DNA of 64,000 bases from an uncultured Pelagibacteraceae bacterium (GTDB lineage: Bacteria > Pseudomonadota > Alphaproteobacteria > Pelagibacterales > Pelagibacteraceae), in assembly GCA_902543575.1 (NCBI GenBank), contig CACBYV010000004.1:47558-111557 (forward strand), given 5' to 3'. The number at the start of each line of letters is the position of its first letter. Position 1 is the first letter of the stretch. This document shows positions 2,365 through 31,007 of this stretch, in pieces. The position numbers and the translations under genes are program-made. Below the pieces are notes generated by a model. It made no database searches. It saw only the letters and a program-made list of their open reading frames with translations, and had not been told where the DNA came from.

Positions 2365-4515
2365 TTATTTACCTATAGATATTAAGGTTAAGTCGTCACT
2401 TAGCTTTTTATCGCCAGCAGTATTAATTACCGTATTTGATATATCTGATAATTGTTTGCTAGAATCTGTGTTAAAATTCTGCTCTATTATTTTTAATGAT
2501 CCATCTATTCCTATTTCTTCACCTGAACTATTTAAGCTTTCAGATAAACCATCAGTAAATGCATAAAACCTGTTATTTTCTAGCTTAACTTTGTGAGTTG
2601 TATAGACCGATTTATCCTTTTGAAGTATTACGCCCATAGGTGGTGAATTACTCTCAAATTGTTCATAACTTCCGGATGATGATCTAATTATAGCTGGCTG
2701 ATGACCACCATTTACCCATCTTAATTCATCAGTCCTCATATTATATTCTCCCAATATACTAGTAACAAACATACCTCCAGTTTTAGTTAAAAATAGGTCA
2801 TTATTCATATGAAACATCATTTCATCTGGATCTACTTGATCTCTAGACATAATCTCAAATAAAGTTGATGCTTTTGCCATCACCATTCCAGCATGAATTC
2901 CTTTCCCCGCAACATCTGCAATAATGAAGTAAACACTATCATTATGAGGATAAAAGCTGAAGAAGTCTCCAGAAACTTCTCTAGCAGCAATATTAATTCC
3001 ATGCACTGGGTAATTTTCTAAATTTCTTTTTGGTAAAAAGTTTTCTTGGACTTTTACTGCAAGTTTTACTTCATTTGAAATTCTGTCTCTCCACACTTTC
3101 CTTTCGGCTTCACTGGTTTCTAGTTTGTTCATTAATCTATTATAATAAAGACCGATTACGCCCCCAGCGGTAAATGGATCTTGAGGGCCTCTGATTGTTA
3201 AATCACCAGACTCAGATTGTTTTTCTAAAATTGTAATTAAATCATGTTCTACAGAAGTTGCATTGTGTTCTGCAATATTAAGCCCTAGCTCTTCATGCAG
3301 TGGACTTACTCTCAATGGATAAATGTAATTTAAAATTTTTAATAAAATATATGAACCAAAAAATGAAAATACACCAATTGAAACAATTCCAATAAATTGT
3401 ACTTTAATTTGTTCTAGTCTAGATAGTCCTGTTCCTAAAATTTCAAGATCACTAAACAAACCTACAGCAATAGTGCCCCAAACACCTGCTGCCAAATGAA
3501 CAGGCACGGCACCAACAACATCATCTATTTCAAATTTATTTAAAAATTCATTTACAAAAATTGCAACTACCGCTCCAATAATTCCAACGAATATTGAAGT
3601 CACTGATGTCATAGAATTACATCCTGCTGTGATTGCAACTAATCCTGCGAGTGGTCCAAGAATTACATAATAAGGATCTGGTTTTTTAAATAATGCAAAT
3701 GAAATTCCAAGACCCGTCAGTAATCCAAAAGAAGCAGCAAGAAATGTATTTATTAAAATTAGAGGAACAGCTTCATCCATTGCACCATTACTTCCACCAT
3801 TAAATCCAAACCATCCAAACCATAAAATTAAAGTTCCCAAAACTGCCAGAGGGAAACTTGAGCCTGTAAATTTTCCTTTATTTGCATCTGAATATTTTCC
3901 TATTCTCGGACCTAAAATTAAAACAGCTGATAAAGCAATCCAACCACCTACAGAATGAACTATTGTGCTTCCAGCAAAATCAACAAATCCAATATCTGTC
4001 AACCATCCAGTTGTTTTAACTTGTCCAGTTACTGCAAGTAATTGTCTTGTAGCATCAATATTATTTAAATAACTAGATGACCATGCCCAATGTCCAACAA
4101 TTGGATATATAATTCCTGTAGCTATAATTGTAATTATTAAATATCCGTTAAATTTCATTCTTTCAGCAACAGCACCTGAAACAATTGTTGCTGCTGTTGC
4201 AACAAACATTGCTTGAAAGACAAAGTAAGTCATGTATTCAGCTTGATCGGTTTTAAAAAAGAATAAATCAGTTCCAAAATAACCATTAAAACTTTTTCCA
4301 AACATTAAACCGAAACCAAATAGCCAAAAAATTACAACTGCAAGACCAAAGTCAGCAGCATTTTTAAGAGCAACGTTAATGCTATTTTTGTGCCTTGAGA
4401 GACCTGTTTCCATACACATAAAACCTGCTTGCATAATGAAAACAAGAATTGCACAATCTATAACCCAAAGGGTATCAACAAATGATTTTACTGACTCCAG
4501 ATCAACACTCTCCAT
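2365..4515 (-). CDS. ammonium transporter (Amt) domain fused to a PP2C/SpoIIE (RsbU-type) serine phosphatase domain
   Basis: 716 aa. N-terminal ~410 aa carry Amt signatures (MQAGFMCMETG, DFAGSTIVHSVGGW, AVPVHLAAGVWG). C-terminal ~220 aa carry PP2C/SpoIIE signatures (SGDFFSFY, IADVAGKGIHAG, GGMFVTS, FTDGLSES, DDLTLISIGK). Single uninterrupted frame. Confidence 0.85.
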   Translation of the reverse strand: MESVDLESVKSFVDTLWVIDCAILVFIMQAGFMCMETGLSRHKNSINVALKNAADFGLAVVIFWLFGFGLMFGKSFNGYFGTDLFFFKTDQAEYMTYFVFQAMFVATAATIVSGAVAERMKFNGYLIITIIATGIIYPIVGHWAWSSSYLNNIDATRQLLAVTGQVKTTGWLTDIGFVDFAGSTIVHSVGGWIALSAVLILGPRIGKYSDANKGKFTGSSFPLAVLGTLILWFGWFGFNGGSNGAMDEAVPLILINTFLAASFGLLTGLGISFALFKKPDPYYVILGPLAGLVAITAGCNSMTSVTSIFVGIIGAVVAIFVNEFLNKFEIDDVVGAVPVHLAAGVWGTIAVGLFSDLEILGTGLSRLEQIKVQFIGIVSIGVFSFFGSYILLKILNYIYPLRVSPLHEELGLNIAEHNATSVEHDLITILEKQSESGDLTIRGPQDPFTAGGVIGLYYNRLMNKLETSEAERKVWRDRISNEVKLAVKVQENFLPKRNLENYPVHGINIAAREVSGDFFSFYPHNDSVYFIIADVAGKGIHAGMVMAKASTLFEIMSRDQVDPDEMMFHMNNDLFLTKTGGMFVTSILGEYNMRTDELRWVNGGHQPAIIRSSSGSYEQFESNSPPMGVILQKDKSVYTTHKVKLENNRFYAFTDGLSESLNSSGEEIGIDGSLKIIEQNFNTDSSKQLSDISNTVINTAGDKKLSDDLTLISIGK

Positions 4516-4578
4516 CTTTTCCTCTAAGTTATTATAAAAAAGTATACATCATAGATAATAGATGCTCAAAATAGGTTA

Positions 4579-4824
4579 TTATTCTTTTTTCTTCCAAATA
4601 TAATAGAATATATAAGGAGATACAGCTGGGACTATCCCAAACCAAAACCATTCGTCCCATCTAAAGCTTTTATCTAGCATTGGACTTTTTAATCCATTCC
4701 ACCATGTTAAATAACCAATTAGAATTATCCAAGCTAAACTTATAGTTAAATAAATTTGAAAGTTTTTTGGTAAACCTCCAGAAAAGACTACTTTTACTTT
4801 TTCTAAAATTTCTTGGTAATTCAT
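4579..4824 (-). CDS. small Trp-rich membrane protein, unknown function
   Basis: 81 aa with two hydrophobic helices (IYLTISLAWIILIGYL, WFWFGIVPAVSPYIFYYIW). Lies 7 nt downstream of the second pilin gene on the same strand. No recognisable family. Confidence 0.45.
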   Translation of the reverse strand: MNYQEILEKVKVVFSGGLPKNFQIYLTISLAWIILIGYLTWWNGLKSPMLDKSFRWDEWFWFGIVPAVSPYIFYYIWKKKE

Positions 4825-4831
4825 AAAATCT

Positions 4832-5245
4832 CTAACAATTAGTTCTTACAAAAGTACCAATTGCTGTCATTGTTATTTGACAACTTCCACCAGTTTCTTT
4901 TGCAAAGACTTTAAAATTTGTTGCATCATTAGCAATACAAAGCTCATATCCCATTTCTTGAGTAATACTATCCGTGCCACCCAATAAATTAGTTTCTATT
5001 GCTGTTGAAGTCGAAGATGTTGGTGAGCATGATGTGCCGGTGCTATTTCTATAATACATACCATTATCAGAATAGTACTCTGTTTGGCCTAATGAGATTT
5101 GTTGCATAACATTTTCGGCGGATCTTTTTTTTGCAGAACTTACATATCCATTGTAGCTAACAATGCCTACCGCAGCTATTATTCCCAAAATTGCAACAAC
5201 CACCAAAAGCTCAATGAGGGTGAACCCTGAGCTTTTGGAAGTCAT
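4832..5245 (-). CDS. type IV pilin-like protein (second pilin paralog)
   Basis: 137 aa. Class III signal MTSKSSG|FTLIELLVVVAILGIIAAVG with Glu at +5. Cys pairs in the C-terminal half. Confidence 0.85.
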   Translation of the reverse strand: MTSKSSGFTLIELLVVVAILGIIAAVGIVSYNGYVSSAKKRSAENVMQQISLGQTEYYSDNGMYYRNSTGTSCSPTSSTSTAIETNLLGGTDSITQEMGYELCIANDATNFKVFAKETGGSCQITMTAIGTFVRTNC

Positions 5246-5267: not shown

Positions 5268-5738
5268 TTACTCAACAGTAATTGTTTTTTCTAAAACATT
5301 CCCTGAAGTTGAACATTCAGAATCTACTGTAAAGCAAGTCTTTACATCAATTGAAGTTGTCGAAGCTGCATTTAAATTAACATATCCACCAGTTCCAGTT
5401 GAAGTGCTACTTCTTACTGCCAAAGCACTAGTTGCGTATGGATTTTTAAAATCAGCGAAGGGTCCGTCAGTTGCTGTAGCTGCAGTAATAACTTTAGCTG
5501 CTGTCTTACCGCTGCAAGTTAATTTACCCCCCATAGCTGTGCTTTCACCTAAATTACATTTTTGTAATTCAGCAGAAATATATTTAACAACGTTTGCATG
5601 GGTTGATTTTGCTGCTTGTTTTTTAGCTCCTGATGTGTAGCCAGAGTATGCAACAACACCAACTGCTGCAAGAATACCGATAATTGCTACTACGACTAAT
5701 AATTCTATAAGTGTGAAACCTTTATTATTTTTTTTCAT
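5268..5738 (-). CDS. pilA: type IVa major pilin
   Basis: 156 aa. Leader MKKNNKG|FTLIELLVVVAIIGILAAVG with Glu+5. C-terminal Cys-x7-Cys loop (KTCFTVDSEC). First gene of the pilin pair. Confidence 0.85.
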   Translation of the reverse strand: MKKNNKGFTLIELLVVVAIIGILAAVGVVAYSGYTSGAKKQAAKSTHANVVKYISAELQKCNLGESTAMGGKLTCSGKTAAKVITAATATDGPFADFKNPYATSALAVRSSTSTGTGGYVNLNAASTTSIDVKTCFTVDSECSTSGNVLEKTITVE

Positions 5739-5780: not shown

Positions 5781-5879
5781 AAATTATATCTTTTAAAAGG
5801 CAATATCTATACTGTAATAGTATTCAAAATGGGTCATTTTTGTTGATTTAGCAAGGAAATTTAATAAATATTAATATTT

Positions 5880-6179
5880 ATGTCATATAAAGTTACAGAA
5901 GAGGGCAACATATCAACGGTTCACCTAGATGGTGAAATAGATATGGACGTAACTGAAAAAGCAAAAGAGATAATAATGCCTTTAATTGAGGCAAAAAAAG
6001 AAGTTCATCTTAATTTAAAAGAAGTTCAATACATGGACTCGTCTGGAATATCAGTTTTAATTGAAAGTCACCAAAAAGCAACTGAACTTGGAACAAAAGT
6101 TATTCTGAAAGAGATAAGTAAATCAGTTTTAAAAGTAATTATGATGGCAAAATTAGAACAAATTTTAAACTTGGACTAA
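5880..6179 (+). CDS. STAS-domain anti-sigma-factor antagonist (RsbV/SpoIIAA-like)
   Basis: 99 aa. Conserved YMDSSGISVL motif; the phospho-acceptor-equivalent Ser54 codon is at 6039-6041. Immediately followed by an RsbW-like kinase gene. Confidence 0.85.
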   Translation: MSYKVTEEGNISTVHLDGEIDMDVTEKAKEIIMPLIEAKKEVHLNLKEVQYMDSSGISVLIESHQKATELGTKVILKEISKSVLKVIMMAKLEQILNLD

Positions 6180-6182: not shown

Positions 6183-6614
6183 ATGAATGTAGCGATCAAA
6201 TCTATAAAAGAACAAAGGGATTTTGTAGTAAGTTCTTCGAGTTTGAAGCAGGTTAGATCATTCTCAAGAGAAGTATTTGAAAAAGTAAATATTGATCAAG
6301 ATTTAAAAGACGAGTTAGTTTTAGCTATTGCAGAGGCTGCACAAAATATTGTCAAACATGCATATCAAGGTGAAGATACAGATGACAAAATGGAGATTAA
6401 AATTTCATTAGAAAAAGGACATCTTGAGATTGGTTTTTTTGACAAAGGAAGACCCGTAGAAGAAAAAAATGTAAGACATAGAAAAATTGATGATATTAAA
6501 CCAGGTGGATTAGGAACTTTTTTTATTCAACAAATAATGGATGCAGTAGTTTTTAAAGAAGGTGAGAAGCCATGGATAAATCATTTAGTCTTAACTAAAA
6601 ATTTAAACTCTTAA
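6183..6614 (+). CDS. anti-sigma regulatory serine kinase (RsbW/SpoIIAB-like GHKL ATPase)
   Basis: 143 aa. N-box AEAAQNIVKHAY, G1-like FFDKGRP, G2 box KPGGLGTFFIQQIMD. 3-nt gap after the STAS gene. Confidence 0.8.
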   Translation: MNVAIKSIKEQRDFVVSSSSLKQVRSFSREVFEKVNIDQDLKDELVLAIAEAAQNIVKHAYQGEDTDDKMEIKISLEKGHLEIGFFDKGRPVEEKNVRHRKIDDIKPGGLGTFFIQQIMDAVVFKEGEKPWINHLVLTKNLNS

Positions 6615-7852
6615 CCGCCAATAATTGCACCAACATTAAAGATTGGTGAATACATGGCGATCATCAATCCACCAATCATTGTTCCCATAAATACAATCAT
6701 GATCGGTTCAATTAAGCTAGACATATTGTCTACCGCTGTATCAAATTCCTCTTCATAGTAAGAAGATACTGAAGTAAACATTTCATCTAAATTTCCTGTT
6801 TGCTCACCAACAGAAATTAGCTGACTGAAGGTAGGTGGAAAAACTGGTTCTTTTAAAAATAATTTTGTAAGTGTGTCTCCTGAAAAAACTCCTTTTTTAA
6901 CATTTTCTAATGCTTGAGTTACAACATCGTTATTACTTACTTGTTTAGCGATTTCTATACTTTCTAAAAGGTTTACCCCTGCTGCACTAAGATTACCCAT
7001 TATTAATGCAATTCTAGCAATCAATGATTTTAAAATCATATCGCCAAAAACTGGCATTTTTAAAACTCGTTGGTGCCACTTGTATCTAATTGTAGGAATT
7101 TTAGTTGTAGTATATTTAAATATAACAAAACCTATTATTGATACTATTCCGAGTGTTAGTCCACCAGCACCTCTCATAAAATTACTTGCATTCATAATGA
7201 CAGCTGTTGGGGTAGGTAATGCAACACCCATTCCCTCATACATTTCAGCAAAAACTGGAACAACTTTAATTAACATGAACACCATGACAGTTATCGCAAC
7301 CGTAAACATAACTACTGGATAGGTTAATGCACTTTTAATTTTCTTTTTAACTTTTTCTCTTTTTTCTAATGAATCTACTAATTTTAATAGGAAATCATCA
7401 AGTTTACCGCTGGCCTCTCCAGCTTTAATCAAATTTATATAAATATTATCAAATATCTTTGGATATTTTTCAAAACATTTAGAAAGAGTTATACCACCTT
7501 CTAAACTTTTTCTAATATCTTCAATAATTTCTTTCATAGTAGGGTGTTCTATTTGGTCTCTAAGCATCGTTAAAACATTTAAAATTGGCAAACCTGCTTT
7601 TACCATTGTTGCAAATTGCTTAGAGAAAAGCATTACATCTGCTGGAGTGACTTTTTTCTTACCAAAAGAAAAGCCACTTTTTTTGCCCTTTTCTTTTTCG
7701 GCTTTTTTCTTTTTAACTTTGATTAAGTTTGTAATTATTATTTTTTGTTCTTTAAGTTTAAAAGAGGCTTCTTCTTGATTTATAGCCTCTATTTCACCTT
7801 CAATATATTTACCTGCAGATATTCCTTTATAAGAAAAAGTTTCGGCTGACAT
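6611..7852 (-). CDS. pilC: type IV pilus platform protein PilC (GspF family)
   Basis: 413 aa. Duplicated GspF-type cytoplasmic domains with three TM segments, C-terminal EPIMIVFMGTMIGGLMIAMYSPIF motif. Adjacent to pilB. Confidence 0.9.
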   Translation of the reverse strand: MSAETFSYKGISAGKYIEGEIEAINQEEASFKLKEQKIIITNLIKVKKKKAEKEKGKKSGFSFGKKKVTPADVMLFSKQFATMVKAGLPILNVLTMLRDQIEHPTMKEIIEDIRKSLEGGITLSKCFEKYPKIFDNIYINLIKAGEASGKLDDFLLKLVDSLEKREKVKKKIKSALTYPVVMFTVAITVMVFMLIKVVPVFAEMYEGMGVALPTPTAVIMNASNFMRGAGGLTLGIVSIIGFVIFKYTTTKIPTIRYKWHQRVLKMPVFGDMILKSLIARIALIMGNLSAAGVNLLESIEIAKQVSNNDVVTQALENVKKGVFSGDTLTKLFLKEPVFPPTFSQLISVGEQTGNLDEMFTSVSSYYEEEFDTAVDNMSSLIEPIMIVFMGTMIGGLMIAMYSPIFNVGAIIGG

Positions 7853-7855
7853 TTG

Positions 7856-9604
7856 CTACTCCATAGAGAGAACTCTATCATACTCTCTAAAATTAAGATC
7901 ACCTGTTAGAATTAATTCTCTTCCCATATCTTGCATTGTCCTAAACCCTTCATTTGAAGCAATTTCTTTAAGCTCAGGGGTTGTTGCTTTTCTTAGGATT
8001 GCCTCTTTAATTGGTTTTGTAACATTTAAAATTTCATAAATACCCATTCTACCTTTATAGCCAGTATCTTTACATTTAGGACAGCCACTACCCTTTTGAA
8101 CTTTTGCCCTTGAAGCCTGTTCAACTGTAAATCCCAAATCAGCTAAAGCCTTAGGTGTTATGTCTTCATCTGGCACTCTACACTCTGAGCAGGTTTTTCT
8201 TGCTAATCTTTGTGCCAAAACAAGTGAAACGGCTGCACTAATCAAATAATCGGGTGTTCCCATGTTTTGTAACCTTGTAATGGTACTTGGTGCATCATTA
8301 GTGTGAAGTGTGCTAAATACCAAGTGACCTGTTAAGGCTGCTTTCAATCCAATATCAACTGTTTCTTTATCCCTCATCTCACCAACTAGAATTATTTCTG
8401 GGTCTTGTCTTAAAAAAGATCTCAGGGCAGTAGAAAAGTTAAAACCAATATCATCTTTAATTTGAACTTGTCCAACACCATCCAATTCATATTCGACAGG
8501 ATCTTCCGCAGTTAAAATATTTAGGTGAGGTTTAGAAACTTCTTTTAGAATACTATAAAGTGTTGTTGTTTTACCTGATCCAGTAGGACCTGTTACAAGA
8601 ACCAAACCTTGTGTTCCATGAATTGCTTTTCTTAAATTTTTTAGATCCGTTTCTTCAAAATTTAGTTGCTCTAAACTAATATCTCCAGCATCTTTATTAA
8701 GAACCCTCATTACTATTCTTTCATTAGTTGCTGTTGGTAAAATCGAAAGACGAAGATCAACTACTTTGCCATCAATTTTAAAAGGTATTGCTCCATCCTG
8801 AGGCAATCTTCTCTCAGCAATATCTAGCTTACCCATAATTTTAAATCTTGTAACTACAGCGCCATAATTTGAATGAAGAAATTTTTTGAAATGTTCTTGT
8901 TCTTGTAGAATTCCATCAAGTCTATATCTAACTCTTGAAGTAAATCTATATGGTTCAATATGAATATCAGATACTCCTGATTTAATTGCTTCTGCTACTA
9001 CAGCTGTACTAAATTTTATAACCTCAGATTCATTTTCAATAGCTTCAATATCTTCCTCAGGTGGTTTTTCTAAAACTTCAGCCTGTTCATCAACATCGTA
9101 GTCAAAAGTTTTTGTTTTTTCTGCATTTGTTTGTCTGATGTCAGATATAGTTCTTTCACCATCAGCTAAAAGTTTATCAACGAAACTGGAAATATCTGAA
9201 ACTTTAGCTGCATGAAGCTCAATATCCATTTTTGTTATAGTTCTCAAATTCCTCATCAAACTTAATTTGGAAATATCTGAGATTGCTATATGCAAAACTT
9301 TGCCTTCAATTTTAAAAGGCGCAATAAAATTCATATTAATATAATTAGAAGGAAGTACTGCTTTTAGCTCATCAGTTACCTCAACTTTTGATAAATCAAT
9401 CACATCTAAAGATTGATCTTTAACGAGAAGATCTAAAATCTTTTCTTCATCGGTCAAGTTTAGTTCGAAGACAGCATCTAACTGAGATTTTTCACCATCC
9501 CCTGATATCTTTTTAATCTCAGCTAAATCTTTTCCAGAAATAATATCTTGGTCAATTAAGATATTAATCAAGTTTATTTCAGATTCTCTACTTATATTAA
9601 TCAT
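7856..9604 (-). CDS. pilB: type IV pilus extension ATPase PilB (GspE family)
   Basis: 582 aa. N-terminal T2SSE_N-like domain, Walker A GPTGSGKTT, Walker B ILVGEMRD, His box LVFSTLHTND, tetracysteine CSEC...CPKC. Confidence 0.92.
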   Translation of the reverse strand: MINISRESEINLINILIDQDIISGKDLAEIKKISGDGEKSQLDAVFELNLTDEEKILDLLVKDQSLDVIDLSKVEVTDELKAVLPSNYINMNFIAPFKIEGKVLHIAISDISKLSLMRNLRTITKMDIELHAAKVSDISSFVDKLLADGERTISDIRQTNAEKTKTFDYDVDEQAEVLEKPPEEDIEAIENESEVIKFSTAVVAEAIKSGVSDIHIEPYRFTSRVRYRLDGILQEQEHFKKFLHSNYGAVVTRFKIMGKLDIAERRLPQDGAIPFKIDGKVVDLRLSILPTATNERIVMRVLNKDAGDISLEQLNFEETDLKNLRKAIHGTQGLVLVTGPTGSGKTTTLYSILKEVSKPHLNILTAEDPVEYELDGVGQVQIKDDIGFNFSTALRSFLRQDPEIILVGEMRDKETVDIGLKAALTGHLVFSTLHTNDAPSTITRLQNMGTPDYLISAAVSLVLAQRLARKTCSECRVPDEDITPKALADLGFTVEQASRAKVQKGSGCPKCKDTGYKGRMGIYEILNVTKPIKEAILRKATTPELKEIASNEGFRTMQDMGRELILTGDLNFREYDRVLSME

Positions 9605-11154: not shown

Positions 11155-11593
11155 CTGCCTCTCTTAATTGATTATTAAAATCAATAATCATATATTTACC
11201 ATCATCTTTTTTAAAGATAGCTTCTGTTAATCTTAAATCAACTAATTGAATTGGCCCTAAATATTGTCCAAGTGTAAGAGTTAAAACTTCTCCTCCAGAA
11301 TTAACTAATGAAATATAACTATGATCTTTACCTGAAATCAAACCTACTAATTTAAAATTATATAAGCTCAATTCATTTTCTTGCTCTTCTTCTGGTATAT
11401 TTCCTGACATCGAGCTAGTTCCTTCATTGCCAGCAAATGGATCATTTAAAGGAACTTCGTCTTCTTCTTGTAATTCTTTAGCGATTTCTTTTGCAGCGTC
11501 TAACACTTCTTGTTTTTGATCATGATTATCTGCAAAAGAAGTTTTCGATATTAAAAGAAATATTAATATGAATAATATTTTAGAAAAATTCAT
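11144..11593 (-). CDS. pilP: PilP-like pilus assembly protein
   Basis: 149 aa. Cleavable signal peptide (SKTSFA|DN), acidic linker, small C-terminal beta domain. Called mainly from its position between pilO and pilQ, with overlaps on both sides. Confidence 0.5.
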   Translation of the reverse strand: MNFSKILFILIFLLISKTSFADNHDQKQEVLDAAKEIAKELQEEDEVPLNDPFAGNEGTSSMSGNIPEEEQENELSLYNFKLVGLISGKDHSYISLVNSGGEVLTLTLGQYLGPIQLVDLRLTEAIFKKDDGKYMIIDFNNQLREADDY

Positions 11594-13936: not shown

Positions 13937-14061
13937 AATTTTTTTTCTAGATTTTAACTATATACTCAACTTTTACTAGAATAAAAACTTAGTTATCCAG
14001 TTTGGGGCATTTAGTAAAATTAATTGATAAATTATGTATAATTTATAGTAAATATATAAAT

Positions 14062-22499: not shown

Positions 22500-22511
22500 T
22501 CATTAAAAATA

Positions 22512-25109
22512 ATGAAAAAGATTTTACTAAGTATAGTCTTCTTTTTTTTATTTAGTTCAGTTGGTTATGCTGGCCCATGTTTAACAACCATTGCTAGTGC
22601 ATCGACAAATCAATTAGCTTGCGCGGATGATGATATTTTAAAAGTTACTTCTGCTGGGTCAATTACTTACAGTGATAATAAGGCAGTTGATCTAGAAGAT
22701 ATCAGTGGAGTTCAAATTACTAATGATGGAACAATTCAAACAGAGAGCGGAACTAATAAACAAATCGCCATAAATGCTGAGTCATCTTTGAATACTACAA
22801 TTACAAATAACGGAACAATCAACTCAGATAATAAGTATGGTGTAATATTAAGTTATGCAGAAAATGTTGTAATTACTAATAATGCAGGGGCAACAATAAG
22901 TGCTGACGGTAATACTGCAATTTATGGAAAAAACGTTGGTAATTGTCATTTTAATGGTACTAATTGCCATTCAGATTTATCTGGTCAGTCAAATGGTGTT
23001 GGTCTTACACTACATAATCATGGAACCATTACCTCTCAACATGAAACCGTTTGGTTAGGTTCAGGAAGTTCAGGTGCTCACAGGAGCAAAGGTATTAAAA
23101 TCTATAACTATGATGGTGGAATTATTAAAACAACAGATGAAGGAGATAGTCCGATTAAAGGTTTTCATTTAGTTGATTTTGAATTTATTAATTATCAGGG
23201 AGGTACAATTGAAGGTGACGACAGACATGCAGTAAATACTGAACAATCTGAAGATATCAATTTTACTAATAATGGTACAATAACTGCAACAGATAAAAGT
23301 GCATTTTATTGTAAAACATGCTCGGATGTTACTTTTAATAATACCGGAACAATGACATCTGGAAATAACGCTGTAGTAATTTCAAACGGGGATAATATAA
23401 GTATAACAAATTCTGGAACAATAACTGCCACTGCTGATAATTCAGGTTTAAATATAAGTGCATCCGACGGTACCGTCGTTACTAATACAGGGACTATTTC
23501 TGGGGTTGATCATGGAATGCAATCTTCAAATGTAGATAATTCTACAATAACAAATCATGGAACTATTTCTGCAAGCTCCAATTCAGGATATGGACTAGTG
23601 TATGAAAATGATGGAACCAACAGAGTAAATAATACTTTAAACAATTATGGTACAATTAGCGCAACATCAGGTTCTCTTGCAGATGGAATTGGTATTGGAA
23701 AAGGTGCAAGTCCAATGTTTAATATTACGATAAATAATTATGGTACAATTTCAGGATCTGATGATTCTATAAAAATGCTTAATTCTTCAAACACGGGTAT
23801 AAATATAGTTACCAAAGGTGACGGTACATATGTTGGTGAGATTAACCTAAATGATTCATCGACAACAATGACATTAGATTGCAGTATTTCAAAAGATCAA
23901 AAAATAGAAATCCATAACAAAACAAATATGGTTATCACAAATAATCTTTGTGGAAACGATACCTATGAAATATTAGATAGCAATAGCGATCCAGATTCAG
24001 ATAATTCAGAAACAAATGGTTTCTTATATGTTTATGGTGAAGATTTAGATATTGATAGCCATAATAAAAAATATAGATCTGAAATATTTTTATCTAATTT
24101 AAATGATATTTTTAATTCGGTTTCAGAAGAAAAAAAATCTAGTGGATATTATTCTGTAAAAAAAAGAGACAATATTTATGAAAATGAAACAACAGGGATA
24201 ACTGGGGACTTTAAAATTGAAAATGATAATTTTACACCGTTTTTAAGTTATTCTAGCCAGCAAGCAAAATTTAATAATGGAGAGGCTTTAGATAGTGAAA
24301 ATTTAGCTATTGGTTTAAAAAAAGATATTGATTACGAGAAATTTAAATTTTCTGTTGTTTCAATTTTTGGATTAACTCAAAATAAATATTTAGATCTTGA
24401 AACTGAAACACAACAAACAATTTTAAAAGAAAATCTAGGTCAGTTTGCTGCTGTAAATTATAAAGCATCTAAAGAAATAGAATTTGATGATAGTCAAAGT
24501 TTAAATATTGAAGTAGATGGTAAATATGGTTTAAGAAGACTTCCAACTTACTTAACATCTTTTACAGATGGAGATCTTTCAGTTGATGATGCTGTTGATC
24601 AAGTATTATCAGGTGGATTTAATGTTGAGTATTCAAAATCTTTTGAAAATGGCTTCGTTCTTAAGCCATATACTGGCCTATCTTTAAATCAAACTTTGAG
24701 TGAAAAAATTGACATTGTTGCAGACGGTGAAAGAAAAGATATGGCCCATTATATGGATGATGATTTAGCAGTAAAAGCTGGTTTAAATATTAGCAAAAAT
24801 ACTGATAATTTCGGCCTAAACTTTAATCTAGAATTTAATGAACAGAATGGACTTAAAGACAGCCAAGTAAGTATTTCATTAACTAAAGTAATTCAAAATA
24901 ATATTAGCAAAAAAATAGAGGGTCTACCTATTGATCCAGAACTAGAAAAATTATTTGATCAATTACAATTAGCTAAAGAAAATGAGAGATTGGCTGACAT
25001 AAGTGGTAGAGCAGTTGAAGAGAATATAATAATGAAAGAAATGATTATTCAGTTGATAAAAGAAAATAATAAACTAAAGACTGAAAGAAATCTTCTATTA
25101 AAAAACTAA
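22512..25109 (+). CDS. autotransporter-like surface protein: beta-helix passenger with about 13 N-x-G-T-I repeats, putative beta-barrel, C-terminal coiled coil
   Basis: 865 aa. Signal peptide ...SSVGYA|GP. ITNxGTIxA-type motifs recur every 23-31 aa between about aa 68-440. Aa ~560-793 show alternating hydrophobic beta-strand patterns. The last 71 aa are heptad-like. Confidence 0.55.
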   Translation: MKKILLSIVFFFLFSSVGYAGPCLTTIASASTNQLACADDDILKVTSAGSITYSDNKAVDLEDISGVQITNDGTIQTESGTNKQIAINAESSLNTTITNNGTINSDNKYGVILSYAENVVITNNAGATISADGNTAIYGKNVGNCHFNGTNCHSDLSGQSNGVGLTLHNHGTITSQHETVWLGSGSSGAHRSKGIKIYNYDGGIIKTTDEGDSPIKGFHLVDFEFINYQGGTIEGDDRHAVNTEQSEDINFTNNGTITATDKSAFYCKTCSDVTFNNTGTMTSGNNAVVISNGDNISITNSGTITATADNSGLNISASDGTVVTNTGTISGVDHGMQSSNVDNSTITNHGTISASSNSGYGLVYENDGTNRVNNTLNNYGTISATSGSLADGIGIGKGASPMFNITINNYGTISGSDDSIKMLNSSNTGINIVTKGDGTYVGEINLNDSSTTMTLDCSISKDQKIEIHNKTNMVITNNLCGNDTYEILDSNSDPDSDNSETNGFLYVYGEDLDIDSHNKKYRSEIFLSNLNDIFNSVSEEKKSSGYYSVKKRDNIYENETTGITGDFKIENDNFTPFLSYSSQQAKFNNGEALDSENLAIGLKKDIDYEKFKFSVVSIFGLTQNKYLDLETETQQTILKENLGQFAAVNYKASKEIEFDDSQSLNIEVDGKYGLRRLPTYLTSFTDGDLSVDDAVDQVLSGGFNVEYSKSFENGFVLKPYTGLSLNQTLSEKIDIVADGERKDMAHYMDDDLAVKAGLNISKNTDNFGLNFNLEFNEQNGLKDSQVSISLTKVIQNNISKKIEGLPIDPELEKLFDQLQLAKENERLADISGRAVEENIIMKEMIIQLIKENNKLKTERNLLLKN

Positions 25110-26990
25110 TTTAAATATTTTTATAAAACCCAACTTATTGTCAGAATATACTTCTTCCTCAAAAACTTTAAAAAATATTTTATATTTATGTTTATCGTAA
25201 CTTGAAAGTTTATAGTAAATTTGTTGCAAAGTGTCAGATTTTAAAATATTTAATTTTTTTCTTTTTCCTAATAAAATAATAAATAATCTCAATTTGAGTA
25301 AATTAATTGAATTTATATTCAATATTGATCTTATGATTATATATATTAGTAGTGGAGCAAAAATCCAAACAAATATTTTTGAAAATTGTAAATTTAAGAT
25401 TTTTTCGACGAAATCTTTTCTTTTTTTATCATCATAAGATAGTAAATGCTGTGTCCATACAAAATCTGCATAATTGAAATAAAAACTTAAAGTTTTCATA
25501 AATCTTGATGAGAACAAACCTTTTGAAGAAAAGTCATCTGTGCTAAAAACATTATTTAAACTATTAATAATATTTTCTTTCGGAATAGCTCTTGTAGGAT
25601 CTACTCTCACCCAGCCCTTATCATCTAACCAAACTTCTGCCCAAGCATGAGTATCTTTTTGTTTAAATAAATAAAAGTTACCAATTTCATTCAGTTCTCC
25701 ACCATGGTAACCAGTTACAATTCTACTCGGTATGCCGCCTAACCTTGAAAGTAAAACAAATGTTCCTGCATAATATTCACAATATCCTTCTCTATCTTTA
25801 AAAAAGAAATTTTCATAATTATTTATTGATGTTTGCTTTGGACTTAAATTATAAAAATAAGATCCATCAGAAAATTTTGCGTAAATTTTATTTATAAAGT
25901 CCTCTTTTGTAGAATTATTATTTTCTTTAACCCATAGTTTTAATTTATTTGAAACTGTTTTAGGTAATAAAGTATAATAACTTTTAATATCCTCATCTAA
26001 GTCAAAAGTAGTTTTAATGTTATGAAATTTAATTTGTTTTTTTCTATCTATTAGATCTCTGCTAATAAATGTTTGATTAAATAAATCTTTTGAGATTTTA
26101 ATATTTTCATTTGCTAATTGTGAATTCTTTAAACTAGGTATCCACTTTTTTTTGTAAGGTTCTAAAATTATTTGGTAAGAATTATTTAAATCTGTCTTGT
26201 CAGAGATTTTAAAATTATCTTTAAATTTACTGAATAAAAAATAGCTAGATGATGGTCTCCAAGATTGATTGTTCTCCATATAGTCAAATATTTTTACCCT
26301 AAAATATAGATCATCTTGTTTATAACCATTGTTTATTAAGGTAAATATCTCCTCATCAGAATTAGAGAATTGACTAAAAGAGCCTAAACTTATTGTATCT
26401 GGAATACCCAAAGAACTTACTGAATTATCAAATAGTCTAAAGTTAACCTCTGCTCTTGGAAATATTAGATAAAATATGATTATAAAAGGAAATATACTTA
26501 GCCCAAATCCTAAATATTTTAAAATATTTTTAAAACTAAATTCCAAGAGTTCTCTCTGTTGAATAAGGTACATGTTTATTACTAATAAGATAATTATAGA
26601 CAAAGAAACTAGTGAGCTAATAATGCCTTGGTCTTTAATCAAACTTGAAACAGCAATAATCATACAAATTAAATTAAATGATAAATTATTATTTTTATTG
26701 GATAATTCAGAAAATTTGATGATTAGTAAAACGGCTAAACAATTTAAAAAATATTCTTCTGACATCACATACTGATTTAAAACAAGTTGAATGTATAAAG
26801 CTGCAATCGCAAATATTCCTATGAATATAGATTTATATTTAAAAATAAGATTAGAAAAAAGATAACTGATAAAAAATAATGCCGCCCAAAATATTAAATT
26901 ATTAAAAATTAAGTTTTTTGATAAATTAAAAATACATAATGCTAATAGAACATATGTAATTAAATTTATATTTTTATTAATTTTTAGCAT
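25098..26990 (-). CDS. membrane transglutaminase-like protein (TgpA-like: N-terminal multi-TM region + TGase core)
   Basis: 630 aa. About 6 N-terminal TM helices. Cys-His-Asp core EGYCEYYAGTFVLLSRLGGIPSRIVTGY ... DTHAWAEVWL ... GWVRVDPT. C-terminal TM helix. Confidence 0.85.
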   Translation of the reverse strand: MLKINKNINLITYVLLALCIFNLSKNLIFNNLIFWAALFFISYLFSNLIFKYKSIFIGIFAIAALYIQLVLNQYVMSEEYFLNCLAVLLIIKFSELSNKNNNLSFNLICMIIAVSSLIKDQGIISSLVSLSIIILLVINMYLIQQRELLEFSFKNILKYLGFGLSIFPFIIIFYLIFPRAEVNFRLFDNSVSSLGIPDTISLGSFSQFSNSDEEIFTLINNGYKQDDLYFRVKIFDYMENNQSWRPSSSYFLFSKFKDNFKISDKTDLNNSYQIILEPYKKKWIPSLKNSQLANENIKISKDLFNQTFISRDLIDRKKQIKFHNIKTTFDLDEDIKSYYTLLPKTVSNKLKLWVKENNNSTKEDFINKIYAKFSDGSYFYNLSPKQTSINNYENFFFKDREGYCEYYAGTFVLLSRLGGIPSRIVTGYHGGELNEIGNFYLFKQKDTHAWAEVWLDDKGWVRVDPTRAIPKENIINSLNNVFSTDDFSSKGLFSSRFMKTLSFYFNYADFVWTQHLLSYDDKKRKDFVEKILNLQFSKIFVWIFAPLLIYIIIRSILNINSINLLKLRLFIILLGKRKKLNILKSDTLQQIYYKLSSYDKHKYKIFFKVFEEEVYSDNKLGFIKIFKLVF

Positions 26991-27894
26991 TAGCTAGGTA
27001 TTTATAAATTTGATTTAATGATTTTTTGTTTTCATCAAGTAAGAAAATTCTTCCTTGATGTTTTACTGTTAGATTTATCTTATTTTGATGAAAATATTGA
27101 ATAATATAAACAGAATAACTAAGCAGTAATTCGAAAGCTAATTCGTTGTATTTGTCTAAATCTAAAATTAATTTCTGAGTTTTTTCTTTATCTTTAAATA
27201 TTTTAATATATTTTTTATCTATTGTTGATTTTTTCCAAGCTATTTTAGAATAACTATCTCCATTTTTAAATTCATCTATTCCATCAAATTCATCGGCATC
27301 AATTGATTTATGAATATTAAATTCATTTAAAAGTTCTTGGTTGGGCTTTATACTTTGTGGATAAACAATTATATCACAGTTGGGGTTATGATTTACTTTT
27401 GTTTTTATTACACCAAATGGATAAATTGAATTTAGAGTGATTGTATCCAATAAATATAGACCTCTCAATTTTTTATTATAATTTAATTTTAAATTATTAA
27501 TTTTTTGAGAGAAATTATAGTTTCCTATGTTTTGTTTTTGATAATTTATATTTATATTAAGTTTTTTTTCTTTTGATAAATTTTCCATTACAAAAGTTAA
27601 TTTATTATTTTTATTGGCCTCAACATAATATTCATTTAAAGAACTTATCTTTAAATTATTAATATTTTGATGCGATATAAGTATGGATATAAAAAAAATA
27701 AAAAAAATAATAATTGATAAAAGTAATCCTGAGTTATTTTCATAAAATACTGAAATCAAAAAACAAAAAAAAACAAAAAATGAAAGGCCAATGCCATTCA
27801 AATTTGGATAGATATATATTTTTGAATTGTTTTTTAATTTGAAGAAATTTTTAAAATTTATTTGATTGAATCTATTTAGAGACTGAATTGACAT
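26977..27894 (-). CDS. DUF58 family protein (vWA-like partner of MoxR)
   Basis: 305 aa. N-terminal TM hairpin. Motif DADEFDGIDEFKNGDSYSKIAWKKS matches the DUF58 G-x-F-x-x-[LI]-R-x-Y-x-x-GD-x-x-x-I-x-WK pattern. Lies between moxR and the TGase gene. Confidence 0.72.
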   Translation of the reverse strand: MSIQSLNRFNQINFKNFFKLKNNSKIYIYPNLNGIGLSFFVFFCFLISVFYENNSGLLLSIIIFFIFFISILISHQNINNLKISSLNEYYVEANKNNKLTFVMENLSKEKKLNININYQKQNIGNYNFSQKINNLKLNYNKKLRGLYLLDTITLNSIYPFGVIKTKVNHNPNCDIIVYPQSIKPNQELLNEFNIHKSIDADEFDGIDEFKNGDSYSKIAWKKSTIDKKYIKIFKDKEKTQKLILDLDKYNELAFELLLSYSVYIIQYFHQNKINLTVKHQGRIFLLDENKKSLNQIYKYLANAKN

Positions 27895-28772
27895 TAACTG
27901 ATATCAATTTTATCAAGGATCTCTTTATTCACGAATTCTATTTTTTCCTCTTGATTTAAAAACCTTATTCTATGCCTTAAAATATAAGGAATTGTATCTT
28001 TGATATCCTGGTGAGTTACATAATCTTTATTATTAATAATTGCCCAACCCCTAGCCAAATCAATTATTTGTTTTAAACATCTGGCAGAAACATAAATTTT
28101 TTGATCAAGACTTTGAATTCTTTGCTCTACACTTACAACATATTTATAAATCTCATCTTTAACAGTTATTATATTTTTTCTTTCTTTAATTTTTTGCCAA
28201 TCTATATTTTCAGATTTTTGTTGATCAAAATTAATTTCTTTCTTTAACATCTCTATTTTGTCGTCATCATTTAAATCTGATAAAGAATAGGAAATCATAA
28301 ATCTATCTAGTTGAGAATCTGGAAGAGAACTTGTTCCAGATGAGTCCATAGGATTTTGTGTGGCAATTACAAAAAAGGGCTCTGGAAGAGAGTGACTTAT
28401 TCCATCAATTGAAACTTTTTTTTCTTCCATTGCTTCAAGAAAAGCACTTTGAGATTTTGGACTACCTCTATTTAATTCATCTGCCAGAACAATATTTGTA
28501 AAAATTGGACCTTTCTGGAAATTCAATTTACCATCTAAAAAAATATTAAATCCAAGTATATCACTTGGTAAAAGATCTGAAGTAAACTGAACTCTTTTAA
28601 AATTTAGACCTAAACTTTGTGTAATAGCTTTAGCAAATGTTGTCTTGCCTGATCCTGGATAATCTTCTATCAATATACTTCCTTCAGAAACGATTGCTGC
28701 CAATGTCAATTTAATTTTCTCAGAATTGCCAACGACTATTTTAGAAGTATTACTTATTATTTTTTCAAACAT
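27894..28772 (-). CDS. MoxR-family AAA+ ATPase
   Basis: 292 aa. Walker A YPGSGKTTFAKA, Walker B/sensor IVLADELNRGSPKSQSAFLEAMEE, FFVIATQNP. Confidence 0.85.
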   Translation of the reverse strand: MFEKIISNTSKIVVGNSEKIKLTLAAIVSEGSILIEDYPGSGKTTFAKAITQSLGLNFKRVQFTSDLLPSDILGFNIFLDGKLNFQKGPIFTNIVLADELNRGSPKSQSAFLEAMEEKKVSIDGISHSLPEPFFVIATQNPMDSSGTSSLPDSQLDRFMISYSLSDLNDDDKIEMLKKEINFDQQKSENIDWQKIKERKNIITVKDEIYKYVVSVEQRIQSLDQKIYVSARCLKQIIDLARGWAIINNKDYVTHQDIKDTIPYILRHRIRFLNQEEKIEFVNKEILDKIDIS

Positions 28773-28784
28773 AAATTTAAATGA

Positions 28785-29549
28785 TTAATAAAAAATTATT
28801 GATCTAATATTACTTTCAAATATCAAATATATCAATGTTCCAAGAATAATATAAGGACCAAATGGAATTTGAGAAGAAAATTTTTTTGATTTATTTATCA
28901 AACTTGGCGCAACAGACAATAATGCAATTATTGATGATAGAAAAATCACAAAAGGTATTGAAAACCATCCAAACCAAAATCCAATAGCAGATAATAATTT
29001 AGCGTCTCCTAATCCCATGCCTTCTTTTTTTCTTATTTGTTTATAAAAAAAAATTATAGACCAGATAATTCCATATCCAAATATTCCGCCAATCAAGGAA
29101 TTTATATAATTAGGAAACATAGGATGCAAACTTGGTAAAAAAGATTTTATAAAACCTAGAGACATCATGGAAAAAGTTAAAACGTTTGGAATAATATAAT
29201 GTTTAAAATCGATAAAAAAAATTATTAAAAAACTTAAACTTAAAATTAATAAAAGTAGTGTTGTGATACTTAAACCATAAAGAATGTAAATAATTAAAAA
29301 TAGTAAAACACTCATCGCCTCTACTAATAAGTATTGCGAAGAAATTTTTTTGTTACAATTTCTACACCTACCCCTCAAGAATAAAAAAGAAATAATTGGA
29401 ATATTGTCCTTCCAGGTTATTAATTTATTACACTTTGGACAAAATGATCTTCCAGACACAACTCCTTTTTCTAAAGGTAAACGGTGAATGCAAACATTAG
29501 CAAAACTTCCCCAAAGTGCTCCTAGAACAAGTACAAATATGAAATCCAC
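28785..29549 (-). CDS. pilD: prepilin peptidase / N-methyltransferase PilD (A24 family)
   Basis: 254 aa polytopic protein. Cys motifs CPKC...CRNC, catalytic-Asp motif GMGLGDAKLL. Confidence 0.9.
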   Translation of the reverse strand: MDFIFVLVLGALWGSFANVCIHRLPLEKGVVSGRSFCPKCNKLITWKDNIPIISFLFLRGRCRNCNKKISSQYLLVEAMSVLLFLIIYILYGLSITTLLLLILSLSFLIIFFIDFKHYIIPNVLTFSMMSLGFIKSFLPSLHPMFPNYINSLIGGIFGYGIIWSIIFFYKQIRKKEGMGLGDAKLLSAIGFWFGWFSIPFVIFLSSIIALLSVAPSLINKSKKFSSQIPFGPYIILGTLIYLIFESNIRSIIFY

Positions 29550-29717
29550 AGAATATGATTATAATTTAATGTTTGATGTAATATGAATTAATCCGTCAAT
29601 TACATACTGCACCATTAAGACTGCATCCTGAAGATGGATGTATAAATTAGGTGTATTAATTATAATCTCCATTGTTGAAAAATTTACCAAAAATTGCTTA
29701 AAATACTAGTTAAATAA

Positions 29718-31007
29718 ATGTTTCTATTTAAATCAAAAAAACCGATCGAACCTAAAAAAGAAGCTGAACAAGTTAACGTTGATTTAGAGCTTGTCACAAA
29801 AATGAATCAAGACTTTGCTTTATCTCTTGATTTAAATGACACTCTTATGAATGCATTGCGGGTAATTATTGCAAGACTGAATGCAGAAGCTGCAAACATT
29901 TTTTTAATAAATGAGCAAAAGAAAAAATTTGAATGTATTGCATCACTTCATCAAGATTATTTGGATGAATATGAATTAGATCTAAAAGACGGTGTTATGG
30001 GTAAAGCTGTTCAGCAAAGAAAGTGTATTCGTGTAGGAAACGTTAGAAAAGATGTAAGAGAAATCGCAGAATTTTATTTTGACTTAGATAATAAAACAAA
30101 CTTTACAACATATTCAGTTTTGTGTTCGCCTTTGATTGCTGCAAATGAGTGTATTGGAGTTATTCATTGTTTAAATAAGAAAACTCAAGATAAACTATTT
30201 ATAGAAGATGATAGAAAACTTTTAGAAACGCTTTCTGCTCCTGCTGCACTAGCAATTAGAAATGCAAAAATGGCAAAAGAAATGGTTGAAAAAAATAAAA
30301 TTCAAAAAGAAGTAGAAATTGTAGGAGAGATTCAAAGATCTTTATTGTCTAAAAACAAAGAGAAAGACTTTCCTATTTCAGGTATCAATATTCCTGCCAA
30401 AGTTGTCTCTGGTGACTTTTATAATTTTTCAGATTTAGGAGATGGAAAATATGGATTTGGGGTTGCTGATGTATCGGGAAAAGGTATTAAGTCATCTTTG
30501 TTGATGTCAAAAGCATCCAGTCTTTATAGATGCTTAAGTAAAACTAATCTTTCAGCATCAGATTTATTATTTCAGCTAAATAATGAAATATGTGAAACTA
30601 TTTCAAGAGGTATGTTTGTTACGATGCTAATTGGAATATACGACTCAAATAAAAAAGAGCTACTTCTCTCAAGTGCAGGTCATGAACCTCCGTTGATACT
30701 TTCTTCTGATGGTACTTTCAGTAATTTTTCAGAAGCAGGCCCACCATTAGGCATCATGCCTAAAACGAAATATCCTGAGCACACCATTCCTTTTGAAAAA
30801 AGCTCAATGTATATTTTTACAGATGGAATTACTGAGATAAAAAATCCAAGCGGAGAAATGTTAGGATCTGAAGGATTTGAAAATTATATAAAAAAATATC
30901 AATCAACTCCAATTAATGAAAGACTTAAAACTATGATAGATGATATTTTGGGAGCTGGCCACTTACAAAAAGATGATTTAACAATAGTTGCTATAGATGG
31001 AAAATAA
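29718..31007 (+). CDS. GAF domain + PP2C/SpoIIE serine phosphatase
   Basis: 429 aa. N-terminal about 30-190 is GAF-like (ANIFLINE..., CSPLIAANECIGVIHCLNK). The C-terminus has SGDFYNFS, VADVSGKGIKSS, GMFVTMLIG, FTDGITE, DDLTIVAIDG. Confidence 0.85.
   Translation: MFLFKSKKPIEPKKEAEQVNVDLELVTKMNQDFALSLDLNDTLMNALRVIIARLNAEAANIFLINEQKKKFECIASLHQDYLDEYELDLKDGVMGKAVQQRKCIRVGNVRKDVREIAEFYFDLDNKTNFTTYSVLCSPLIAANECIGVIHCLNKKTQDKLFIEDDRKLLETLSAPAALAIRNAKMAKEMVEKNKIQKEVEIVGEIQRSLLSKNKEKDFPISGINIPAKVVSGDFYNFSDLGDGKYGFGVADVSGKGIKSSLLMSKASSLYRCLSKTNLSASDLLFQLNNEICETISRGMFVTMLIGIYDSNKKELLLSSAGHEPPLILSSDGTFSNFSEAGPPLGIMPKTKYPEHTIPFEKSSMYIFTDGITEIKNPSGEMLGSEGFENYIKKYQSTPINERLKTMIDDILGAGHLQKDDLTIVAIDGK

Follow-up and report, generated by a model that had tools for sequence, protein, structure and literature searches.

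A candidate multi-input partner-switching module in a flexible type IVa pilus island of SAR11 bacteria

Partner switches, ammonium receptors and pilus regulators

The partner switches of Bacillus, RsbU/RsbP-RsbV-RsbW and SpoIIE-SpoIIAA-SpoIIAB, offer a framework for the signalling genes examined here, which belong to a type IVa pilus island of an uncultured Pelagibacteraceae (SAR11) bacterium. The island occupies positions 2365-31007 of a 64-kb stretch of DNA, called the window below, and positions refer to the window unless another contig is named. Its proteins come from the same families as those of Bacillus (a STAS protein with a DSSG motif, a GHKL kinase and PPM phosphatases), several sensor phosphatases would act on a single STAS protein, much as RsbU and RsbP share RsbV, and a helical linker lies between sensor and PP2C domain, as in the model of RsbU activation. 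Unlike the Bacillus genes, those of SAR11 sit within a pilus island and not in a sigma-factor operon, their sensors are Amt, CHASE2 and GAF domains in place of RsbT-binding or PAS domains, a target of the sigma-B/F type is lacking in SAR11, and the kinase, at 51.9 bits against the RsbW equivalog cut-off of 145, lies far under the threshold and is not an RsbW ortholog. Three hallmarks of partner switching are present, namely a phospho-serine STAS protein, a GHKL kinase beside it and sensor-linked PP2C phosphatases with metal-binding motifs; a cognate alternative sigma factor, which the kinase would sequester, is missing from the island and the window.

The sensor phosphatase at one edge of the island, Amt::PP2C, resembles the ammonium receptors (AmRs) Sd-Amt1 (Amt-HAMP-GGDEF) and Ks-Amt5 (Amt-histidine kinase), with which it has in common the N1/N2 signature, the pore residues and a transducer that a linker attaches on the cytoplasmic side. 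It differs in that the transducer is a PP2C phosphatase and that Leu-286 replaces the exit-constricting Asn-269 of Sd-Amt1. AmRs bind NH4+ without net transport, and Amt::PP2C may do so too. The words "phosphatase", "PP2C" and "SpoIIE" have zero occurrences each in the paper on AmRs, and a PP2C phosphatase would be a third output type for the class. A protein of the same type and length (716 amino acids (aa), Amt plus a phosphoprotein-phosphatase domain) is known from SAR11 gMED as "Amt-GI5". It was proposed to be an ammonium sensor and was reported as flexible and, in a marine dataset of ~12,000 single-amplified genomes, exclusive to SAR11, and it was treated as a single-gene island, an orphan without cognate transducer in genomes with "no other PPP domains" (PMC11796062). 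In contrast, the gene described here adjoins the pilus island, which corresponds to GI-6 of gMED (27 genes, labelled "type IV secretion system") and which supplies a STAS protein, a kinase and a second PP2C; Amt-PP2C fusions also occur in high-GC bacteria.

In Nostoc punctiforme, hormogonia, whose motility depends on type IV pili, neither develop nor move normally without the PP2C/STAS/kinase set HmpU/HmpV/HmpW; its output is the STAS protein, which works through some effector other than a sigma factor. The Hmp proteins are cyanobacterial, are not reported between pilA and pilC, are not fed by an Amt sensor and serve a developmental programme with dedicated sigma factors. PilS/PilR, Chp and FimX/PilZ act on the same kind of machine as the one encoded here, but their domains are found in no open reading frame (ORF) of at least 80 aa across the 64-kb window, SAR11 lacks sigma-54, and a pattern search of PilB did not find the MshEN motif that binds cyclic di-GMP, though the MshEN N-domain is present. 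In Pseudomonas aeruginosa SiaABCD and Vibrio fischeri SypE/SypA, a membrane- or sensor-linked PP2C phosphatase and a kinase act on a small partner whose unphosphorylated form drives surface or aggregation behaviour, with no anti-sigma step. The outputs of these two systems are a diguanylate cyclase or polysaccharide, whereas the SAR11 island holds no GGDEF gene and its match to SiaA is weak (20.9 bits versus a cut-off of 700).

SAR11 has almost no transcriptional regulators, and nitrogen sensing without PII or NtrBC is a standing question in the literature. The present analysis joins three published loose ends, the partnerless Amt-phosphatase sensor, the lone RsbW kinase and the flexible pilus island, as one co-inherited system; a full-text literature search returned no paper that does so. 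We propose that the island carries, beside the genes of a complete type IVa pilus, a multi-input partner switch of its own that tunes piliation, a proposal whose chances we put at slightly better than even. More specifically, the STAS protein and the only Ser/Thr kinase of SAR11 might form a sigma-independent switch dedicated to the pilus, in which Amt::PP2C would read external NH4+ and, with interchangeable CHASE2- and GAF-linked phosphatases, set the phosphorylation of the STAS protein, which would bind PilB, PilC or PilM-N and so turn pilus assembly on or off; in this detailed form the proposal is possible but doubtful. If it is true, nitrogen status would directly gate the capture of DNA or substrates by the pili of the most abundant bacterium in the ocean, and Amt::PP2C would be the first ammonium receptor with a protein-phosphatase output having an identified downstream pathway.

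Inheritance of the signalling genes with the pilus island

The signalling genes and the core genes on either side of the island are listed here by position.

1051-2292: DAO, the core gene flanking the island end opposite to RodA
2365-4515, minus strand: Amt::PP2C, with the Amt module in residues 1-~420, a helical linker in ~421-525 and the SpoIIE/PPM domain in 526-714
5880-6179, plus strand: single-domain STAS protein of the anti-sigma-antagonist type (Pfam STAS 2.6e-16)
6183-6614, plus strand: RsbW-like GHKL serine kinase (Pfam HATPase_c_2 2.8e-20)
29718-31007, plus strand: GAF::PP2C, a cytoplasmic sensor phosphatase (Pfam GAF/GAF_2; SpoIIE 3e-42)
31008-32138: RodA, the core gene abutting GAF::PP2C

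The window has a G+C content of ~30%. Its nearest relatives come from single-cell genomic data on Pelagibacteraceae, in which PilC identity reaches 100%. Pfam scans covered every ORF of at least 80 aa in positions 1-36000, and further scans took in the rest of the window. A sequence-only reading of this DNA had described the block as a full type IVa pilus gene set with four signalling genes and without PilS/PilR-type control. Pfam confirms the pilus set for all genes except PilP, which is named from its position and signal peptide, and likewise returns Amt::PP2C, STAS, the RsbW-like kinase and GAF::PP2C as the only signalling genes among all block ORFs. None of the block ORFs gave a Pfam match to a response regulator, a histidine kinase, a sigma-54 activator or a PilZ, GGDEF/EAL or Che domain, the gaps between block genes are too short for a concealed gene, and Rfam returned no RNA element within 2365-31007. 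The absence of PilS/PilR-type control extends to the window as a whole, which encodes no such domains, and fits the reported lack of sigma-54 in SAR11.

The STAS protein scores 71.3 bits against NCBIfam TIGR00377 (cut-off 53.45), and the structures closest to it are RsbV and SpoIIAA. Its motif YMDSSGISVLIE, which includes the phospho-serine and reads YMDSSG in the window, is invariant in 54 unique sequences from related loci. In the 40 most distant loci it is the best-conserved protein of the island, with a median identity of 82.8% compared with 80.7% for PilB, 76.1% for PilC and 68.1% for the kinase. We predict that it is the phospho-substrate, through Ser54, and the probable output of the switch. 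The N-box (EAAQNIVKHA) and G2 box (GGLGTFFI) of the kinase show little or no variation among 67 unique sequences, and the solved structure nearest to the kinase is that of RsbW in the RsbW-RsbV complex. The kinase starts 4 bp past the STAS stop codon in the same frame, its 3' end overlaps that of pilC, and the pair is divergent from pilA and convergent with pilC. Natural STAS-kinase fusions also exist, as metagenomic proteins of 243-244 aa (P0118, P0120) with both Pfam domains, and a second STAS gene stands in tandem in 16 loci.

The sequence-only reading had proposed to test whether the signalling genes travel with the pil cluster and disappear when the pil genes do. Comparative genomics came out in favour on both counts. 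A PilC scan of one genome per species gave 80 SAR11 loci (71-100% PilC identity), onto all of which the window proteins were mapped; the denominators given here are loci with enough sequence. In every one of 77 loci the kinase gene has pilC as a neighbour, at a distance of at most 60 bp in 73 and of up to ~0.5 kb in the other four, and the STAS gene is present in all 75 loci that could be scored for it. A search for homologs of the kinase was uninformative on non-pil contexts, its top 120 matches all being near-identical SAR11 proteins.

This association persists despite inversion of half the island. In the type 1 arrangement, that of the window, pilT and the minor pilins follow pilMN, and in type 2 (L041-L080) the pair pilD / GAF::PP2C is directly upstream of pilMN. 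In type 2 the stretch that runs from pilT to GAF::PP2C (14002-31007) is turned round, which places pilT next to RodA. Loss of pilT and the minor pilins from type 2 loci was considered and rejected, as contigs with the order RodA-pilT-minor pilins (L108, L112, L115) show the inversion. A search for inverted repeats at the breakpoints gave AT-rich chance matches and the two facing PP2C domains only. The divergent pair pilD / GAF::PP2C is retained in both arrangements; in type 2 genomes a 100-aa ORF and GAF::PP2C, the latter with 69-76% identity, stand directly upstream of pilMN. Placement of GAF::PP2C at the island edge, as in the sequence-only reading, is thus correct for the arrangement of the window and wrong for the inverted one.

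The converse was seen at the site where the island is missing. A metagenome scan with RodA yielded 80 SAR11 contigs (58-95% identity), 56 of which have an identifiable neighbour. RodA joins DAO(-EamA) in 45 of these 56, with a gap of at most 132 bp in 17 and a gap that holds a bactofilin gene alone in 26; the remainder read RodA-pilT (4, type 2), RodA-GAF::PP2C (2, type 1) or RodA-OMP-FecR (5; OMP, outer-membrane protein). Searches with STAS, the kinase, Amt::PP2C and GAF::PP2C found no match in any empty-site contig, so that the pil genes and all four signalling genes are jointly missing there. The island fills this site in the window, in L081-L082 and in those PilC loci that have DAO/EamA as a flank, and DAO-EamA is the far boundary of CHASE2-type islands on independent contigs; all 80 PilC loci are compatible with a single RodA-DAO site. 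As these junctions are empty of pil genes and switch alike, 2365-31007 behaves as one insertion/deletion unit, and the edges 2365 and 31007 drawn in the sequence-only reading are the exact limits of the island. We thus take the block to be a genomic island of the flexible SAR11 gene pool, inserted where the core genes DAO and RodA otherwise meet. Pil genes had already been reported as flexible in SAR11, and the pil island has been noted in a SAR11 genome from nitrogen-poor water and not in a relative from more nitrogen-replete water. The bactofilin (153-154 aa, Pfam 1.7e-18) marks the empty site of more divergent SAR11 lineages (L100, L127, L141 and ~23 others) and is absent from the lineage of the window.

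The case for co-inheritance with the pilus island is very strong where STAS and the kinase are concerned. It is good for GAF::PP2C and, if Amt::PP2C is seen as an optional plug-in, for that gene too, and weak for CHASE2::PP2C, a further sensor phosphatase described below. These data bear on the possibility that STAS, kinase and PP2C proteins are a general Ser/Thr signalling system for nitrogen and carbon metabolism or stress that hitch-hikes on the island without having pili as its target. RsbW/SpoIIAB-family kinases are normally dedicated to their own STAS substrate, which argues against such a role. So do the 45 of 56 RodA-DAO junctions from which module and pil genes are both missing, as would not be possible for a core regulator, and the position of STAS and kinase between pilA and pilC in all 77 loci despite the inversion and heavy turnover of neighbours. 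On the other hand, Amt-PP2C-kinase/STAS modules elsewhere and the CHASE2::PP2C cassette of SAR11 occur without pil neighbours, and the pil-embedded RsbW of strain HTCC1062 (SAR11_0057), detected in the proteome, is reported as the only Ser/Thr kinase of a genome with 1014 S/T/Y phosphosites on 555 proteins (PMC13198564). On balance we consider a global regulator of this kind unlikely. HTCC1062 is also said to have no protein phosphatase (PMC13198564); the SpoIIE/PP2C genes beside its RsbW contradict this statement and are obvious, overlooked candidates. Phosphatases do exist, in the form of two to four SpoIIE-domain proteins near the kinase. The supplement of the phosphoproteome study has no entries for the switch loci (PMC13198564).

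The Amt sensor and the swappable sensor slot

Amt::PP2C matches Pfam Ammonium_transp at 2.7e-111 and SpoIIE at 2.2e-34, and its phosphatase domain has the catalytic motifs SGDFF, DVAGKG, FTDG and DDLT. The best PDB matches of the Amt module are Sd-Amt1 (8QJ3/8QJ4/8QPF; 1e-119, 46% identity) and then Ks-Amt5 (6EU6, 3e-85); E. coli AmtB matches at 1e-29 only. When we tested the AmR signature, Q-X6-E-X15-N-X2-D-[F/T]-X54-60-T-X2-[S/T], all N1/N2 ligands and pore residues were kept: Q29, E36, N52, D55, F56, T110 and S113 align with Q22, E29, N45, D48, F49, T104 and S107 of Sd-Amt1, and the long spacer is 53 residues instead of 54, a deletion of one residue. The C-terminal cytoplasmic transducer and linker that characterise the class are there as well, the PP2C domain (526-714) following a linker of ~100 residues. 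The assignment of the module to the ammonium-receptor class, and with it a role in ammonium sensing, is well supported by sequence.

How the signal could reach the phosphatase is suggested by both sets of relatives. A HAMP-like linker has been modelled by others for the same type of Amt-phosphatase protein (PMC11796062). On activation of Sd-Amt1 the HAMP domains pair and the transducer domain dimerises; for RsbU-type phosphatases, dimerisation through the linker is the described route of activation, and diverse sensors have been proposed to use it. Taking the two together, we infer that NH4+ binding would activate the PP2C domain.

An exhaustive search of 1.84 billion cluster representatives showed that nearly all of the closest Amt modules belong to long fusion proteins. 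The architecture is Amt-SpoIIE in several, Amt-(GAF)-(PAS)-SpoIIE-HATPase_c_2 in three and Amt-HisKA-HATPase-REC-SpoIIE in one, and the kinase domain fused in Amt relatives aligns end to end with the kinase of the window. Two contigs of 55-57% GC, which are not SAR11, carry an operon of two STAS genes followed by an 856-aa Amt::PP2C::RsbW-like kinase fusion (L179 9072-12571, L180 139-3225). The presence of such a fusion right after two STAS genes shows that PP2Cs linked to Amt act on STAS proteins in concert with RsbW-like kinases. Partner switches driven by an ammonium receptor appear to be a wider class, of which we found no description in the literature looked at.

Within SAR11 the Amt sensor is one of several occupants of a slot downstream of pilA2 and a small gene, orf81, which we scored in 69 classifiable loci. 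A single Amt::PP2C fills it in 19, two Amt::PP2C genes split by a small ORF in 11, and Amt::PP2C together with a module of OMP, FecR-domain protein and CHASE2::PP2C in 13; truncated versions of the Amt and CHASE2 layouts account for 10 loci. One locus (L058) has OMP and FecR with room for CHASE2::PP2C, and none was found there. The layout with two copies fits the gene numbering of HTCC1062, in which SAR11_0049 and SAR11_0050 are Amt genes, SAR11_0056 is the STAS counterpart, SAR11_0057 is RsbW and SAR11_0061 is PilP. The Amt- and CHASE2-linked phosphatases are alike from ~75 residues ahead of the PP2C domain, which points to a common linker-PP2C chassis under different sensors. GAF::PP2C, outside this slot, has the motifs SGDFY, DVSGKG, FTDG and DDLT, and over the island as a whole there are two to four sensor-fused PPM/PP2C phosphatases with all catalytic motifs intact. 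Swapping cassettes of sensor and phosphatase on one switch would be a compact way for a streamlined genome to diversify its inputs.

A 112-aa ORF stands beside second or divergent copies of Amt::PP2C (L024 13381-13719; L005, L011, L012 and others). Its length suggested PII/GlnK, which we rejected: the ORF has no Pfam match, a signal peptide and a GMMCIKC motif (MxCxxC, metal-binding-like).

Several observations count against a pilus-dedicated switch fed by ammonium. The Amt input is dispensable, as 13 of the 69 loci have a complete CHASE2 module without Amt; nine more have OMP/FecR without a CHASE2::PP2C in view, and in two (L020, L040) the pilA side is without a sensor phosphatase (a similar call in L032 is contig truncation). 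The OMP-FecR-CHASE2::PP2C cassette is found not only in the slot and after pilY1 but also directly after RodA (L184 6338-10621), after an ABC transporter (L175 10001-14728, L181 6820-11822, L182) and behind a TctCBA transporter (L176); the 7-10 kb around it on those contigs hold no pil genes. Pil genes are likewise not near the Amt-PP2C-kinase/STAS modules of high-GC bacteria. The emptiness of the 45 contigs was scored at the RodA-DAO site and is not proof of genome-wide absence. In HTCC1062, the protein abundance of SAR11_0049 and SAR11_0050, both Amt::PP2C, was unchanged with nitrogen status, which is also what would be expected of sensors. Finally, a conserved palindrome near pilA, presented below, implies an additional trans-acting DNA-binding regulator from outside the island.

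The CHASE2 cassette behaves as a mobile sensor cassette that is not strictly bound to the island. The occurrence of the high-GC Amt-PP2C-kinase/STAS sets away from pil genes shows that the module is not inherently a pilus regulator. The suggestion of the sequence-only reading that nitrogen or nutrients are the input gains from the complete AmR signature and has to be narrowed in that Amt is one optional, swappable input. One contig of the RodA-OMP-FecR kind encodes, between RodA and the CHASE2 module, a protein of 315 aa that has two DNA-binding domains of the winged-helix type (L086 3173-4120). It is the only DNA-binding protein seen near any CHASE2 cassette.

Probable output of the switch, and cargo of the island

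According to published work, the sigma factors of SAR11 are limited to sigma-70 and sigma-32 and its two-component systems number four, and no sigma factor is encoded in the island or in the 64-kb window. A PilR/sigma-54 circuit would then be impossible, and RsbW would be left without a canonical sigma partner. Together with the known switches that act through a STAS output, this favours, by inference, a post-translational output onto the pilus machinery. The sole experimental hint comes from nitrogen-limited HTCC1062, in which the PilP protein (SAR11_0061) rose 1.58-fold while its mRNA changed 1.23-fold; a rise in protein beyond the change in mRNA points the same way.

We therefore envisage the following scheme. 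The kinase would keep the STAS protein phosphorylated, and each sensor phosphatase would dephosphorylate STAS~P once its signal dimerises the helical linker and PP2C domain. For Amt::PP2C the signal would be periplasmic NH4+ filling the N1/N2 sites, for CHASE2::PP2C some periplasmic cue and for GAF::PP2C some cytoplasmic ligand. Dephosphorylated STAS would then change partners. As SAR11 has neither a sigma-B/F-type factor nor sigma-54, the output is most likely sigma-independent, with STAS or the freed kinase binding PilB, PilC or PilM-N; alternatively, the levels of pilus proteins could be set after transcription. Ammonium and other cues would in this way adjust piliation, and hence the capture of DNA or substrates or adhesion. 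Control of piliation by the switch is a plausible hypothesis, and ammonium sensing, STAS phosphorylation and piliation are now directly testable in culturable pil+ strains such as HTCC1062 or HIMB1556.

A canonical anti-sigma logic would instead have the kinase sequester sigma-70 or sigma-32, as proposed for chlamydial RsbW, and the STAS protein release it, so that transcription of pilA and other genes shifts, rather than the pilus machine itself. The kinase is most similar to RsbW and SpoIIAB, and phosphosites have been reported on RpoD and RpoH in HTCC1062. Moreover, STAS-kinase and pilA share a divergent promoter region with a conserved element, which is placed as follows.

5825-5836: conserved element in the divergent pilA / STAS-kinase promoter region, whose minus strand reads TGACCCATTTTG

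In some other lineages the element is a perfect palindrome, e.g. GCTCATTATGAGC or ACCCATTATGGGT, and the pattern YYCA-WWW-TGR is found in 51 of 72 unique pilA-STAS intergenic sequences (L001-L080) versus 0.93 expected from shuffles. It looks like an operator for a DNA-binding protein, and no DNA-binding protein is encoded in the island. A scan for sigma-70 promoters gave fewer matches than in shuffles and is uninformative in AT-rich DNA. Against the anti-sigma explanation stand the lack of a group-3 sigma factor in SAR11, the score of the kinase far under the RsbW equivalog cut-offs, the effect of nitrogen limitation on PilP protein rather than mRNA, and the generally weak transcriptional responses of SAR11 (PMC13198564). 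We regard it as improbable, and a sigma-independent output onto the pilus remains the one that we favour.

The pilus genes and the other cargo of the island are arranged as follows.

4579-4824, minus strand: orf81, a small protein predicted to lie in the membrane, encoded between pilA2 and the slot for sensor phosphatases, with no family match
4832-5245, minus strand: pilA2, with N_methyl motif and G|FTLIELLVV prepilin site
5268-5738, minus strand: pilA1, with N_methyl motif and G|FTLIELLVV prepilin site
6611-13936, minus strand: pilC, pilB, pilQ, pilP-like, pilO and a pilM-pilN fusion (Pfam T2SSF, T2SSE+MshEN, Secretin, PilO, PilM_2+PilN)
11144-11593, minus strand: pilP-like gene of this operon, with no family match
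14002-15078, plus strand: pilT (Pfam T2SSE)
15056-17790, plus strand: four minor pilins (Pfam N_methyl, PilX_N), prepilin motifs verified
17854-18408, plus strand: orf184
18408-22499, plus strand: pilY1 (Pfam T4P_PilY1)
22512-25109, plus strand: orf865, an 865-aa secreted protein
25098-28772, minus strand: TgpA transglutaminase, orf305 and MoxR AAA+ ATPase (Pfam TgpA_N+Transglut_core, AAA_3+AAA_lid_2)
28785-29549, minus strand: pilD (Pfam A24_N_bact, Peptidase_A24), divergent from GAF::PP2C

Gene order in the assembly operon is the same in all 80 loci, and orf81 is kept at the same position in 40 loci with 48-98% identity. The pilins evolve fast, with a median identity of ~50% between loci. 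Four items had been absent from the inventory of the sequence-only reading: orf81, orf184, orf865 and the TgpA/orf305/MoxR operon. The last of these lies in the most AT-rich stretch of the window (21-25% GC).

The cargo raises the possibility that the switch controls surface adhesion through autotransporter adhesins, PilY1 or TgpA/MoxR and not the pilus fibre. Autotransporter genes lie by sensor phosphatases or pilD in several loci (type V secretion; L031 18216-20351, L069 18688-21051, L081 13394-15973, also L080), in agreement with a published survey that placed the SAR11 adhesin in every case next to genes for pili or type II secretion, and operons of FecR and CHASE2 have been linked to biofilm control in Burkholderia. 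Autotransporters are, however, missing from the window and most loci, whereas STAS and kinase are universal and are embedded between pilA and pilC, away from the cargo. Control of the cargo in place of the pilus is in our view very improbable.

The trio TgpA/orf305/MoxR also follows pilD in L081 and L082, at times with an autotransporter inserted. In type 2 loci the PilM-PilN fusion is ~800-835 aa long (e.g. L043 3039-5486) versus 572 aa in the window, and the extra length is an N-terminal extension of ~240 aa with no family match. Outside the block, the window encodes cell-shape and housekeeping genes and a tmRNA, an alphaproteobacterial two-piece gene at 47820-48118 (Rfam RF01849, 228.8 bits).

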